Of a stretch of DNA of 39,163 nucleotides, positions 4,240 through 11,217 are shown in pieces. Under the pieces are notes generated by a model. That model made no database searches. It was not told the origin of the DNA and was given only the letters and a program-made list of their open reading frames with translations. Position 1 is the stretch's first letter, and every line of letters begins with the position of its first letter. Location of the stretch: positions 1-39,163 of the forward strand of contig CAYUTF010000023.1 of the NCBI GenBank assembly GCA_964447495.1, in the 5' to 3' direction. A program made the position numbers and the translations under genes. This DNA comes from an uncultured archaeon. GTDB taxonomy: Archaea > Asgardarchaeota > Lokiarchaeia > Sigyniarchaeales > SOKP01.

Positions 4240-5978
4240 TTATTACTCACCTGACTAATAACTTCATTTTTAGTATTAGATGAATTAAAAATATTAATTT
4301 CATTATTTATATTGTCTAGATCTCTTATTCTTTCGATTTCTGCGTAAATTTTATCTCGTGTTGGATCCCATGAATAACATGCTCCTTTAACGATCTTCGT
4401 TTGGATTTTCCCGTTAGCAAACTTACTGTTTTTTAAATGTGGTGCATCAAAAATTCCATACTTTACAAGTCTATGTAGGACATTTGGATTAATGTATGGA
4501 TCTTGAGCTTTTTCTGAATTTAATGATAAATTTGGAATTAAATATATAATTTCTTTTGCTTGTTTAATTAATTGATCTTTCCTTCTTAGAATACTCTCAG
4601 TTATGAAATCTATATTACTAGAAAGAAATTTATTAATCACTTGACTTACGATTTTACAACTTTCAACAATATCAGAAGGAAATGCTGCGTGGTCAGCTTC
4701 TGAATAGCTTACAATATGGACAATCTCAGGTTTAAGAGCTAATTGAATCATAGTGGCTGCTGCTAATTGTCCTTTTGCTTTTTCTAAATCTAAAGGAAAG
4801 CTAGCTAAACCTGTTCTTACTTGTTTGATGATTGAGAATTTATCATCTGATAACGTATGAAGTAGTTCATTTTTCGCTAACATTTTGGCTAAATCCATAT
4901 CAAATGAAAGAGACGGAGGCGTATTGAACATATATTGAGCTATAAAATGCCTTACGCCTAACTTTTTTGCTATAATACCACAGAGATACATATCTGCTAC
5001 AGCGATAGCATCAGAAGAATCACGTAAACTCCAATGGTGTGGATCATTGATTTCAACAGGTATATTATTTGATGCATGCCATTTTATTGCTTCCAAATGT
5101 TGTTTAATTGACTCTTTTAGAGGTAAAGGGCCTCTCCCATCCATTTGATTAAACCAGAATATCGGTATTGCTGCCCAAGCATTTTTAATGGTATCTAAAT
5201 AGAGTTTTCCCATTTTTATGAAATCCCTCGTACCAGCATAAATTCGAAGAAGGGGAAAATTACCTCTCATTCTTGCTTTGTCTAAAAGATGAAAATCTCT
5301 CTTAGACCTCAACGGAACACCTCCGGCACCATAATGATCTCTATTTTGAACTTCAGGATGAAAATAATTTGATTGTGTGTTTTGATCTGGAGCAATCGAA
5401 ATTACATCTAAGACTTTGGCTTCTGCTATCTTTTTTATTCCATTTAATGTTTCATTTAAGTTAGGTAATCCAAAGTGAGCTCGTATAATGGGATATGGTT
5501 TTTTCCATCTAATTCGAGTAATTAAATCCATTGGAATTTTAAGATGGTCTTTAGAGAACTCTGCTTCATTTCTCAAAATGGAAATAATCTCATATTTATC
5601 TTCACCTCCAATAAAGTAGTGATCAAATTTCCCATAGTCCTTAGCAATTTTAACCACTTCAGGTGTACCGGCGAAAAACAGTTTCTCGGGCTTTTTATTT
5701 AAAGTATGATATGTATTAAAAAATTTCTCTAATAATGGGATAACTGTTTTTGGAGTTAGCCTATAACTAAGTCCAACTATAACTGGATTTAATTCCTTAA
5801 TTTTACTAATAATTTCAGAAATAGGAATTGCTGGACCTAAAAAATAGCATTTATAGCCAAGGTGCTTAGCAATTTGTAAAAAGTTATAAGTACCTGCAAC
5901 GTGAACACATTGACCTATACATGCAGTCAGTATTACTTTATCCTTTTGTCTTTTTAACTTGCTTTTTATTTTTTCCAT
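4236..5978 (-). CDS. Cobalamin (B12)-binding domain protein with C-terminal mutase-like (GlmE/aminomutase-type) barrel, copy 1
   Basis: N-terminal CVHVAG (DxHxxG-like) ... LGPA ... VGLSY B12-binding Rossmann domain followed by ~430-aa domain. Start at 5978 chosen by alignment with copy 2 and GAGGT SD. Confidence 0.75.
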   Translation of the reverse strand: MEKIKSKLKRQKDKVILTACIGQCVHVAGTYNFLQIAKHLGYKCYFLGPAIPISEIISKIKELNPVIVGLSYRLTPKTVIPLLEKFFNTYHTLNKKPEKLFFAGTPEVVKIAKDYGKFDHYFIGGEDKYEIISILRNEAEFSKDHLKIPMDLITRIRWKKPYPIIRAHFGLPNLNETLNGIKKIAEAKVLDVISIAPDQNTQSNYFHPEVQNRDHYGAGGVPLRSKRDFHLLDKARMRGNFPLLRIYAGTRDFIKMGKLYLDTIKNAWAAIPIFWFNQMDGRGPLPLKESIKQHLEAIKWHASNNIPVEINDPHHWSLRDSSDAIAVADMYLCGIIAKKLGVRHFIAQYMFNTPPSLSFDMDLAKMLAKNELLHTLSDDKFSIIKQVRTGLASFPLDLEKAKGQLAAATMIQLALKPEIVHIVSYSEADHAAFPSDIVESCKIVSQVINKFLSSNIDFITESILRRKDQLIKQAKEIIYLIPNLSLNSEKAQDPYINPNVLHRLVKYGIFDAPHLKNSKFANGKIQTKIVKGACYSWDPTRDKIYAEIERIRDLDNINNEINIFNSSNTKNEVISQVSNK

Positions 5979-7156: not shown

Positions 7157-7672
7157 TCAATTTTGTTGACTTACTACTAAAACATCACAAGGAGCTTCAT
7201 TAACTACTTCTTGGGTAACTGATCCTGAGATTATTCGTTCAAATGTAGAGTGTTCTCCCTTAGTACCTAATACTATAAGATCAAAATTCTCCTCCCCTAT
7301 AATTTCCTTAATATAATCTTCAGGTTTTTGATTATCTATCAAACGAATCTCGATTTCTATTTTTTCTTTATCGAATAAGTCCTTGGTTTTCTTAAGTATT
7401 TTTTCTCCATGATATTTGTATTCTTCCTGAATTTTTCGATAATCTACCATAGGAACTGTATATCTTCCTCCAAATCCACTAGGAACCATAATTGGCATAT
7501 ATTTAGGGAATTTATGATGATCTATTGAATGAAACGCAACTATTTTGGGATAATTTTGGTCACTTATGACACTTTCTTTACTATTTCCATTTTTCACTAA
7601 GTCTAATATTTTTTTAGCAGCTTTAAAAGCAATCTCTGAATCGTCCATTGCAATTAGAATTTTGTTGTAAAT
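7157..7672 (-). CDS. Universal stress protein (UspA family), probable ATT start
   Basis: (M)YNKILIAMDDS and DLIVLGTKG...GSVTQEVVNEAPCDVLVV motifs; the track's GTG lies inside the SD GGAGGTGA, and ATT follows 5 nt later. Confidence 0.9.
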   Translation of the reverse strand: MYNKILIAMDDSEIAFKAAKKILDLVKNGNSKESVISDQNYPKIVAFHSIDHHKFPKYMPIMVPSGFGGRYTVPMVDYRKIQEEYKYHGEKILKKTKDLFDKEKIEIEIRLIDNQKPEDYIKEIIGEENFDLIVLGTKGEHSTFERIISGSVTQEVVNEAPCDVLVVSQQN

Positions 7673-7873
7673 AGCTTTCACCTCCTAATTTTCGTCATTT
7701 TGACATCTATACTATCATATACAAATGAATTATTATATTTAAATATTAACATTTTATAATATTATAATAGTATAATATTTTCTTATTATAATAAACAGAT
7801 TTAAATATTTTAACTCTATTATTTAATTAGATTTTGATAAAAGAAAAGTTATAAAATAAGTTGGGGAGTTTTA

Positions 7874-9244: not shown

Positions 9245-10789
9245 ATCGCAGGCATATTCGCAATTTTTAAGAAAAAAAGAATAGATGGTGTGTTATTAGA
9301 TGAAATTAAACATAATGCCACAAAAATAAAACATCGAGGGAGAGAAAGTCGATTTATATATGAGGACTTTCCTATAGAAGTAATTTTTTATCAAAAAAAA
9401 GAATTTAGAAGAAATGTACCTTTAAATTTCGCATTTGACAAAAATAGTAATAATTTAATAGTCATTGATGGTAAAATTTATAATCTAAAAGAAATGAATG
9501 CCAAATATTTGAGTACTCGTAAAGATATGGAGCAAACTCATAAGAATAACTTAGAAGGAATAATTGCGGGATATAAAAAATGTGGAATAGAAATACTAAA
9601 TCAATTATTCGGCTCTTTTAGTGGAATCTTTTATGATGGAACCGAATTAATTGGTTTTAAGGACCCTATAGGTGGAAAGCCATTATACTATTGTGAAAAT
9701 CAAGATTTCATAATTTATTCTTCTGAGTTAAAAGCGCTTTCTTCTCTTAGTCTAAAAATTACTCCTATTAAACCGGGAAGAGCGAAATTTTCTTCGGGTA
9801 AGACTAAAAGATATTACAATTTTCCAAGATTTAATGAAGAAATAACGTTAACAAAAAAAGCGATTAAACTATACGCTGTTGAATTGAAGGAATGCGTAAA
9901 ATTAGCTGTCGCAGATTCAATTAGAGAAGAAGAAAAGGTAAGCGCTCTATTAAGCGGGGGACTAGATTCCGCAATAGTTACTTATGTTGCTAAAGACTTT
10001 GTCGAAAAATTACATGTTTATACAGTTGGATTTAATGAGTCTAAAGATATATATTATGCAAAAAAGTTTGCTAAACTATATAATCTCGACCATTCTGTTG
10101 TTAAAGTAAATCTTAGTGATATGCTTGAATGTCTTCCGAATGTTATATTTGCACTTGAAACGTTTGATGCGGCATTGATAAGAAGTTCAATCCCAATGTT
10201 TTTAATATCAAAAAAAGTTAGAGAAGACCAAGGAGACTGTATTCTTCTAACAGGTGAGGGTGCGGATGAACTTTTCGGAGGATATTCATATCTTCTTAAT
10301 TTTAATTCAAAAGAGTCCTTAAACAACAAGATTTTAAACTTGTTGGAAAGAGAACATTCAACAGGATTGCAACGAGTCGATCGTATACCATACTTCTTTT
10401 CTATTGAAGCTAGGGCGCCTTTATTTGACAAAAGAATCGTTGAATTGTCATTTAATATCCCATCTGAATTAAAAATTTTTAAGAAAGAAGGAATTGGGTT
10501 TGCGAAAAAATGGATTCTGAGAAAAGCTTTTGAAGATGAAATTCCCCCTGAATTTATTTGGAGAAGAAAACAAAAATTTTCGAATGGGGTGGGTTCTGAA
10601 TTTATTTTAAGAGATTACATTAACACAATTATTTCTGATAGTGATTTTAATTATGAAAAACGAATTACACCACATTTTTCATTAAGATCGAAGGAAGAGT
10701 TATATTATTGGAGAATTTTTAAAAACAAATTTAAACCTACATTAGAAACTATATCAGAGCTAGGATTTACAAAGATATTTGAAATATAG
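9245..10789 (+). CDS. Asparagine synthetase B-like amide ligase lacking the N-terminal catalytic Cys; probable ATC start
   Basis: LSGGLDS, TGEGADELFGGY, EARAPLFD, KWILRKAF, DPIGGKPLYY, SSELKAL present; N-terminus (M)AGIF instead of MCGIF; SD GGTGA 5 nt before ATC 9245 (track start TTG 9233). Confidence 0.85.
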   Translation: MAGIFAIFKKKRIDGVLLDEIKHNATKIKHRGRESRFIYEDFPIEVIFYQKKEFRRNVPLNFAFDKNSNNLIVIDGKIYNLKEMNAKYLSTRKDMEQTHKNNLEGIIAGYKKCGIEILNQLFGSFSGIFYDGTELIGFKDPIGGKPLYYCENQDFIIYSSELKALSSLSLKITPIKPGRAKFSSGKTKRYYNFPRFNEEITLTKKAIKLYAVELKECVKLAVADSIREEEKVSALLSGGLDSAIVTYVAKDFVEKLHVYTVGFNESKDIYYAKKFAKLYNLDHSVVKVNLSDMLECLPNVIFALETFDAALIRSSIPMFLISKKVREDQGDCILLTGEGADELFGGYSYLLNFNSKESLNNKILNLLEREHSTGLQRVDRIPYFFSIEARAPLFDKRIVELSFNIPSELKIFKKEGIGFAKKWILRKAFEDEIPPEFIWRRKQKFSNGVGSEFILRDYINTIISDSDFNYEKRITPHFSLRSKEELYYWRIFKNKFKPTLETISELGFTKIFEI

Positions 10790-10845
10790 GGAGTCCAAAA
10801 AGGAAGATATTGAGAAATGAATGATGTTGGAAAATAGTACAAGAG

Positions 10846-11217
10846 ATGGAAATTAAATTACTTAGTGAGGTGAAAAGATTTATTAAAGAGGATAAAATTT
10901 GTCCAAAATGTAGTTTTCCAAAGGAATTATGTATGTGTGCTAATTTAGAGGCAGAAAATCAAAATATCAAGATTTTAATTGAAAAGCGTAGATGGGGGAA
11001 AATTGTAACCGTAGTCAAATTTAAGGGAGATTTTAATGTTAACTTGGATGATTTAAGCACAAAATCTAAGAAGAAATGTGCTTCTGGAGGTACTTATAGA
11101 AATAATACTATTGAAATACAAGGAGACCATCGGTTGAAATTAAAAAAATTGCTTATACAAGAAGGTTTCACAAAAGAAAATATCATAATTGAAGATTTAT
11201 TTAAGAAAAAGAGGTAA
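10846..11217 (+). CDS. sui1: Translation initiation factor aIF1 (SUI1/eIF1 family); start ATG 10846 or ATT 10882
   Basis: ICPKCSFPKELCMC zinc knuckle, KRRWGKIVTVV, CASGGT, IEIQGDHR. Confidence 0.92.
   Translation: MEIKLLSEVKRFIKEDKICPKCSFPKELCMCANLEAENQNIKILIEKRRWGKIVTVVKFKGDFNVNLDDLSTKSKKKCASGGTYRNNTIEIQGDHRLKLKKLLIQEGFTKENIIIEDLFKKKR

Follow-up and report, generated by a model that had tools for sequence, protein, structure and literature searches.

The gene for archaeal translation initiation factor 1 (aIF1, a SUI1 protein) was analysed in a 39,163-nt stretch of DNA (the window; contig CAYUTF010000023.1 of assembly GCA_964447495.1) from an uncultured archaeon of the Lokiarchaeia, order Sigyniarchaeales. 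The host genome, designated here G000 (3.81 Mb in 223 contigs, 31.3% GC), carries two aIF1 paralogues, the window copy (copy A) and a second copy on contig C27 (copy B, the widespread type), which share 57% identity. Judging from sequence comparisons, aIF1 almost certainly starts at AUU throughout the family, and AUU is probably also the main start of the window copy. The best overall explanation that we can offer, with a probability of roughly 0.6, is an AUU-started aIF1 that limits its own synthesis through negative feedback.

A mechanical search of the window finds the ORF (open reading frame) 10846..11217 on the forward strand; its 123-aa product is a SUI1/aIF1 protein (Pfam PF01253, with an E-value of 7.5e-18 and 65.2 bits against a cut-off of 25.5). 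The features of the locus, and the second paralogue, are as follows.

10822..10824, + strand: in-frame TGA that opens the aIF1 frame; no ATG, GTG or TTG from there to ATG 10846
10846..10848, + strand: upstream in-frame ATG, start of the mechanical ORF; without a Shine-Dalgarno (SD) sequence and unconserved
10867..10873, + strand: SD sequence GAGGTGA, a 7-nt perfect complement of the 16S tail
10870..10872, + strand: in-frame GTG embedded in the SD; a rival start, picked by some gene callers
10882..10884, + strand: proposed AUU initiation codon, 8 nt 3' of the SD; the equivalent codon is ATT in relatives
10882..11217, + strand: aIF1/SUI1 coding sequence as started at ATT, 111 codons plus the stop codon TAA (11215-11217)
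10900..10938, + strand: N-terminal zinc knuckle CPKC...CMC, with the CxxC...CxC motif
10957-11169, + strand: Pfam SUI1 domain (profile match)
G000:C27:4922-5254, + strand: second aIF1 paralogue (copy B), with ATT at 4922 and TGA three codons upstream

The upstream ATG, the SD and ATT 10882 share one frame. A prediction made earlier by a model from the letters of the window (the original prediction) had expected the ATT start to give a typical short aIF1 N-terminus, and the NCBIfam profile NF002096 agrees: the window protein belongs to this family (116.1 bits against a cut-off of 98) and, when started at ATT, its residues 4-103 align with profile positions 2-101 of 102, profile position 2 falling at residue 4. 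All four cysteines of the zinc knuckle are invariant in an alignment of 28 Asgard sequences; we take the N-terminal CxxC...CxC knuckle to be typical of many archaeal aIF1 proteins, and the CPKC...CMC motif of the window protein presumably binds zinc.

The 3' end of the 16S rRNA of G000 (contig C190) reads ...GGATCACCTCCT and, being complementary to this tail, GAGGTGA is a perfect 7-nt SD. The energy of the SD/anti-SD duplex, computed over the 20 nt upstream of each candidate codon, is -12.0 kcal/mol for ATT 10882, -3.3 kcal/mol for ATG 10846 and -3.9 kcal/mol for GTG 10870. The 2794 first-ATG genes of G000 have a median of -3.7 kcal/mol, with 6.2% of them at -10 or lower, and 1756 random sites have a median of -3.25 kcal/mol, with 2.2% at -10 or lower. 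Two claims of the original prediction are thus confirmed: a full GAGGTGA lies inside the ORF 8 nt before an in-frame ATT, and ATG 10846 has no evident SD, its duplex energy being about that of the random median. The SD-to-ATG spacings in G000 occupy 1-10 nt (with counts of 10, 22, 15, 31, 34, 29, 31, 12, 26 and 16, respectively), and the spacings of 8 nt in copy A and 9 nt in copy B both fall inside the genome's own range. GAGGTGA itself is common (216 occurrences in G000) and, the motif not being rare, the weight of the argument rests on comparative data and not on the motif count.

When 41 related genomes were searched in all six frames, aIF1 turned up in 31 of them. Of the 29 zinc-knuckle loci in this set, 17 offer no ATG, GTG or TTG from the upstream stop to the first Cys. 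Copy B of G000 has no canonical in-frame codon after ATT until codon 107 of its 110, which puts it out of reach of standard gene callers. Together with it, 15 copy-B loci of the same genus (L003-L017) read ...TAA AGG TTG TGA xxx xxx xxx ATT AAA GAx ... ATT TGT, with the TGA three codons 5' of ATT and no canonical codon between this stop and the first Cys, and nine copy-B loci from two further genera of the family (eight from g12 and one from g20) have TAA or TAG one or two codons 5' of the same ATT. The copy-A loci of two other genomes (L002 and L040) read GAG GTG Axx xxx GAA ATT AAA, have no upstream ATG and open their frames just 19 codons ahead of the Cys. Overall, the codon equivalent to ATT 10882 is ATT in 28 of the 28 family genome loci.

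The same picture emerged from 80 metagenome loci fetched with the copy-A alignment, 70 of copy-B type and 10 of copy-A type, although some of them may come from the same populations as the genomes, and the counts are to that extent not independent. The start-equivalent codon is ATT in 77 of these loci, ATC in two and ATA in one, and all 70 copy-B loci have a stop one to three codons upstream and lack a canonical start. Combined, 95 copy-B loci (25 from genomes and 70 from metagenomes) carry a stop one to three codons 5' of the ATT equivalent (ATC in two of them) and are devoid of canonical codons from that stop to the zinc knuckle. Among the copy-A loci, L002, L040 and nine of the ten from metagenomes retain GAGGTG(A). 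Thus, the proposal that aIF1 itself may start at AUU, the core of the original prediction, is strongly supported by the comparative data, and an ATG at the position equivalent to 10882 was found in none of the family orthologues, whether among the 28 genome loci or the 80 metagenome loci.

The pattern of variation among the 25 unique copy-B sequences, in all of which the ATT is invariant, points the same way. Codons 1-17, covering ATT and the zinc knuckle, have 3, 1 and 10 variable columns of 17 at the three codon positions; this stretch varies mainly at third positions, which argues that it is translated. The corresponding numbers are 13, 7 and 30 of 33 for codons 18-50 and 17, 17 and 15 of 20 for the 60 nt upstream of ATT, where periodicity is absent outside the invariant SD block. 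Since periodicity runs from ATT and is missing upstream, purifying selection on the protein begins at or next to this codon. The invariant upstream block is AAAGGTTGTGA, which we read as a 9-mer SD with two internal mismatches (-7.9 kcal/mol). The sequence AGGTTGTGA was considered as a special regulatory motif and rejected, as its 23 occurrences in the genome rarely coincide with gene starts; in our reading it represents the 9-mer SD AGGAGGTGA carrying two internal mismatches (-7.9 kcal/mol). RNAalifold, run on 19 of 24 locus sequences, predicted no conserved pairs (0) at the copy-B start. A conserved block, AAGGTTTTTATAAGATTTAGGTCTATTATTTTTTAG, located some 60-95 nt 5' of the copy-B ATT in L003-L017, looks like a BRE/TATA promoter (B recognition element and TATA box) with an initiator region, which would imply a 5' untranslated region of about 45-60 nt.

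Two ways of translating copy B from further upstream were considered and discarded. A programmed frameshift at the A-run that follows the stop is at odds with the lack of conservation of this run (AAAAAAAAGT, AGAAAGAAC, ATAAAAAGT, AAACAAGAGT) and with the presence of upstream stops in all frames. Reading of TGA as a sense codon after a TTG start is at odds with the sequences of genus g12, which has TGA TAA ahead of ATT, and of L035, which has TAG...TAG.

At the level of the GTDB phylum, a search with PF01253 gave matches in 282 of 301 genomes. A non-random set of 80 loci, chosen from the best 150 of 292 matches so as to cover 29 GTDB families, was combined with the first set of relatives and copy B of G000 into 111 loci, of which eight were dropped: L030 (at a contig end), L041 (masked), and L062, L076, L077, L090, L094 and L095 (no CxxC). 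The CxxC of the zinc knuckle is missing altogether from the aIF1 of these last lineages of the phylum. By an objective test, the absence of ATG, GTG and TTG between the upstream stop and the first Cys, 41 of the remaining 103 Asgard loci have no canonical start option, and these are spread over 9 of 25 GTDB families. Their apparent start codons are ATT, ATA or CTG: ATT in family f1; ATA in f2 (genus g5), f5, f7, f14 and f20; ATA and ATT in f19; CTG in f12; and CTG or ATA in f9. Sister loci often have a canonical codon at the homologous position, with GTG and CTG found in f12, ATG, TTG, ATA and ATT in f19, and TTG, GTG, ATG and ATA in f2. Manual assignment of starts to all 103 loci gave ATT in 29, ATA in 15, CTG in 7, GTG in 11, TTG in 7 and ATG in 34. 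On a FastTree phylogeny of these short proteins, which is poorly resolved and gives rough estimates, the six codon states require a minimum of 22 changes, and the two classes, canonical and non-canonical, a minimum of 12. CTG is the sole plausible aIF1 start in L065, L069, L070 and L110 of family f12 and in L053 and L054 of family f9; in L070 and L110 a TGA stands two codons 5' of this CTG, and GTG occupies this position in sister loci. Initiation at CUG is, to our knowledge, unusual in archaea.

Control genes were scored by the same objective test, i.e. for a canonical codon before a conserved anchor, which was fixed in the case of the phylum-wide aIF2-beta set. Among the same 41 relatives, loci without a canonical start number 0 of 30 for aIF1A, 0 of 30 for aIF2-beta and 1 of 30 for prefoldin-beta, this one being the locus of G000 itself. 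Phylum-wide, the number is 0 of 50 for aIF2-beta, with ATG as the nearest canonical codon in 41 loci, TTG in six and GTG in three; for 15 of the 50 loci, aIF1 in the genome of origin was read as non-canonically started (14 of them unambiguously). Among named public archaeal records of aIF1, mostly non-Asgard, it is 0 of 79. The latter sample is biased, consisting of the best 80 of 587 hits minus L249, dropped for want of CxxC; it is made up mostly of Bathyarchaeia, with some Methanomethylicia, Nitrososphaerota, DPANN and euryarchaeal groups and four records labelled as Asgard (Jord-, Odin- and Heimdallarchaeota). An ATG stands 3-6 codons ahead of the first Cys in 72 of these 79 loci; in the other seven the only canonical choice is TTG (three loci) or GTG (four loci).

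At this level of divergence start codons do change, and they do so quickly within the genus. At 25 prefoldin-beta loci of the genus (within L271-L295) the start position is ATG in 12, TTG in 12 and ATT in one; at 25 flavodoxin loci it is ATG in 13, GTG in six, CTG in three and TTG in three; and in aIF1A (L111-L140) the start alternates between ATG (MAKKK) and GTG (VAKKK). Within the family, aIF1 is never ATG-started.

Control of a fidelity factor through its own suboptimal start is textbook knowledge for bacterial infC and is known for eukaryotic eIF1; the AUU-start autoregulation of infC, which encodes IF3, was reportedly described by Butler and colleagues in 1987, and autoregulation of eIF1 through poor AUG context is said to have been described by Ivanov and colleagues in 2010. 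In the mechanism that we propose, ribosomes placed by the strong SD GAGGUGA would start on the aIF1 mRNA at AUU 10882, 8 nt further on, and make a protein of about 111 residues. AUU, which is fixed in the family, with AUA, AUC, CUG, GUG and UUG taking its place in other Asgard lineages, would be decoded by the initiator tRNA in vivo. The factor would destabilize initiation complexes on non-AUG codons and, if it rejects such complexes, its own AUU-started mRNA should therefore be under negative feedback, with translation reduced at high levels of aIF1 and raised at low ones.

A 2014 review (PMC4705826) bears on this analogy. It reports that Sulfolobus solfataricus 30S complexes bound both AUG and AUU mRNAs without aIF1 and only AUG mRNAs with aIF1 in vitro, that IF3 autoregulates via the AUU start of infC, that IF3 and aIF1 are unrelated proteins with different folds and that the role of non-AUG starts in archaeal translational control was still open. 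Discrimination of aIF1 against non-canonical starts is also stated in a further article (PMC6237735), and archaeal starts are given as AUG, GUG and UUG only in another (PMC7531240). For binding of aIF1 to the small ribosomal subunit and its rejection of non-AUG starts, the relevant published work is that on S. solfataricus and P. abyssi. The feedback reading fits because the weak start is fixed, the control genes have canonical starts and the S. solfataricus factor discriminates against AUU in vitro. By analogy with the latter, the aIF1 of G000 presumably discriminates against AUU as well, and a functional feedback on aIF1 seems to us slightly favoured. The interpretation put forward in the original prediction is partly supported: strongly for the start site, where both refuting conditions that it named turned out in its favour, while the infC-like autoregulation is an inference that fits these data.

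The resemblance to infC lies in a gene for a start-codon fidelity factor that begins at AUU behind an SD, in the conservation of this odd start (28/28 family genome loci and 41/103 phylum loci, with 0/30, 0/80 and 1/30 in the controls) and in the predicted logic, more factor leading to less initiation on its own mRNA. The two systems differ in that the feedback of infC has been shown genetically, whereas that of Asgard aIF1 is predicted from sequence, and in that the Asgard codon varies by lineage (AUU, AUA, AUC, CUG, GUG, UUG). With eIF1, its SUI1-family homologue, aIF1 shares the principle of a suboptimal start site of its own; however, eIF1 has an AUG in a conserved weak Kozak context on a scanned mRNA, whereas the window aIF1 has an AUU, a non-AUG codon placed by an SD without scanning.

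The main rival explanation, which we consider rather unlikely, accepts the AUU start and dispenses with feedback: the lineage would have a relaxed repertoire of start codons, and the weak start of aIF1 would set a low constitutive level. It draws on an SD-anchored scan of G000 (minimum lengths of 6 nt for the SD and 100 codons for the ORF, and an upstream stop no more than 25 codons away with no canonical codon after it; for odd codons, additionally no canonical codon within 15 codons downstream), in which spacings of 4-10 were contrasted with spacings of 16-22. The canonical codons gave 135 versus 6 (ATG), 28 versus 0 (TTG) and 11 versus 0 (GTG). The scan was also enriched for ATT (14 versus 5) and ATA (10 versus 6), with CTG at 2 versus 0, and the composition-matched control codons AAT (3 versus 8), TTA (2 versus 4), AAA (7 versus 7) and TTT (2 versus 6) showed no enrichment at spacings 4-10. 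A Pfam run on 20 of the 25 distinct odd-start candidates yielded seven in which the domain begins at residues 2-37 after the odd codon and the first canonical codon lies 17-98 codons downstream, inside the matched stretch in six of the seven and just upstream of it in the response regulator. They encode a flavodoxin (CTG start), a response regulator (ATA or ATT), a Ras-like GTPase, an Usp protein and prefoldin-beta (ATT each), and Hsp20 and the large subunit of NiFe-hydrogenase (ATA each). The seven genes are located at C14:17123 (+), C94:6391 (-), C95:6029 (+), C39:25778 (-), C12:11007 (-), C6:59738 (-) and C32:19706 (+) of G000. Use of AUU, AUA and CUG as starts therefore looks genome-wide, and homology confirms two of the odd starts, the ATT of prefoldin-beta and the CTG of flavodoxin.

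In those two genes, however, the odd codon is sporadic (1/25 and 3/25, respectively) and the other relatives use ATG, GTG or TTG, whereas in aIF1 it is fixed over three genera and in both paralogues and is never ATG. The lineage thus appears to tolerate AUU, AUA and CUG behind good SD sites; what sets aIF1 apart is not the odd start but its fixation. Moreover, if the aIF1 of G000 discriminates against AUU as the S. solfataricus factor does in vitro, some feedback would be automatic.

The window itself contains an Usp-family-like ORF (7157-7686, - strand) with a 9-nt perfect SD, AGGAGGTGA (7686-7678), followed after 5 nt by ATT (7672-7670). Its product would begin (M)YNKILIAMDDSE..., the lone upstream canonical codon is a GTG within the SD, and the next ATG, eight codons in, would delete the first strand of the protein; this is likely another ATT-started gene.

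Several observations weigh against an AUU-started, self-limiting aIF1. With AUU, AUA or CUG starts in at least seven other genes of G000, the weak start could merely set low expression. An ATG start was assigned manually in 34 of the 103 Asgard loci and is found in most of the named, mostly non-Asgard records, so that the feature is not universal. In the 62 loci that have some canonical option the start was assigned manually, and 10 non-canonical calls among them are judgement calls. The relatives are phylogenetically non-independent, family f1 supplying 25 of the 41 decisive loci. The sequencing runs that contain the locus comprise nine DNA and no RNA runs; contigs of four runs were compared with positions 10760-10960 and none was placed. 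Finally, the window copy offers two upstream codons in its own frame, ATG 10846, which is present in this copy alone and possibly yields a longer isoform, and the GTG inside the SD, a possible start found here and in 11 of the 12 copy-A orthologues.

Initiation of the window copy at ATG 10846, with ATT 10882 as an ordinary internal Ile codon of the 123-aa protein, is improbable. In its favour, no other ATG precedes the zinc knuckle, no canonical codon comes earlier in the open frame, and many genes of G000 lack a clear SD, the median duplex energy of first ATGs being near random. Its own SD energy is as weak as noted above, and leaderless initiation there was rejected, as a genome-wide profile shows no TATA-like or promoter-like signal at -27. 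The extension of 12 residues would place 14 residues ahead of the NCBIfam profile start and, as the original prediction had anticipated, it is not conserved: none of the 12 copy-A orthologues (L002, L040 and ten loci from metagenomes) has an equivalent ATG, and in six of them (L326, L328, L329, L330, L331 and L334) an in-frame stop interrupts the would-be extension. Copy B of the same genome has no such codon to use. ATG 10846 thus appears to be a recent, unconserved in-frame codon.

A start at GTG 10870 is the least probable of all: 11 of the 12 copy-A orthologues offer no other canonical codon, and JGI and other callers give V/M-K-x-x-I-K starts (P0042, P0057, P0068), but this GTG forms part of the SD and has no SD of its own, the orthologue L330 has AAGGAGGAG in place of GAGGTG and no canonical codon throughout its 17-codon open frame, and copy B reads TTG TGA at the equivalent place.

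Among the closest public proteins, which are named 'stress response translation initiation inhibitor YciH' [Promethearchaeota archaeon] or [Candidatus Lokiarchaeota archaeon], P0004, P0006, P0008, P0016, P0017 and P0025 begin with MKDDDIC..., i.e. at the ATT-equivalent codon, and are 105-113 aa long, as judged from the protein entries. NCBI annotation thus already places the aIF1 start at this codon, and the start is implicit in public records. These PGAP entries have the start codon and the length of the ATT-started ORF in common with our reading, but their start is an automatic, homology-driven one, their name is that of a bacterial family and they are silent on regulation and conservation. 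Other callers have produced truncations of 70-90 aa, TTG starts that read TGA as Trp, or copy-A starts at the GTG in the SD. P0001, P0040 and P0045 begin with MWK... ('MWKKSIKDDD'), which corresponds to TTG TGA AAA with TGA as Trp; such proteins look like artefacts that arise when, for want of a canonical start, a different genetic code is applied in gene calling. A full-text literature search, with subscription journals outside its scope, returned no report of a non-AUG start or of autoregulation of archaeal aIF1.

A gene caller that admits only ATG, GTG and TTG leaves aIF1 of these genomes truncated, wrongly started or uncalled, and the same fate would await at least seven other genes of G000 that have no canonical codon at the apparent start. 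Annotation of Asgard genomes should therefore permit AUU, AUA and CUG starts.

The comparative contrast is clean, and the archaea that bear the signature in their eIF1 homologue belong to the lineage closest to eukaryotes. A bolder and, in our view, doubtful extension is that how stringently start codons are selected could serve as a global regulatory axis in Lokiarchaeial archaea, the self-adjusted level of aIF1 titrating a regulon of AUU-, AUA- and CUG-started genes. In G000, this putative regulon would comprise two Usp proteins, Hsp20, prefoldin-beta, flavodoxin, the response regulator, the Ras-like GTPase and the NiFe-hydrogenase subunit. If this were true, eukaryotic 'stringency control' of the eIF1/eIF5 type would have a precursor in archaea that operates on SD-led mRNAs.
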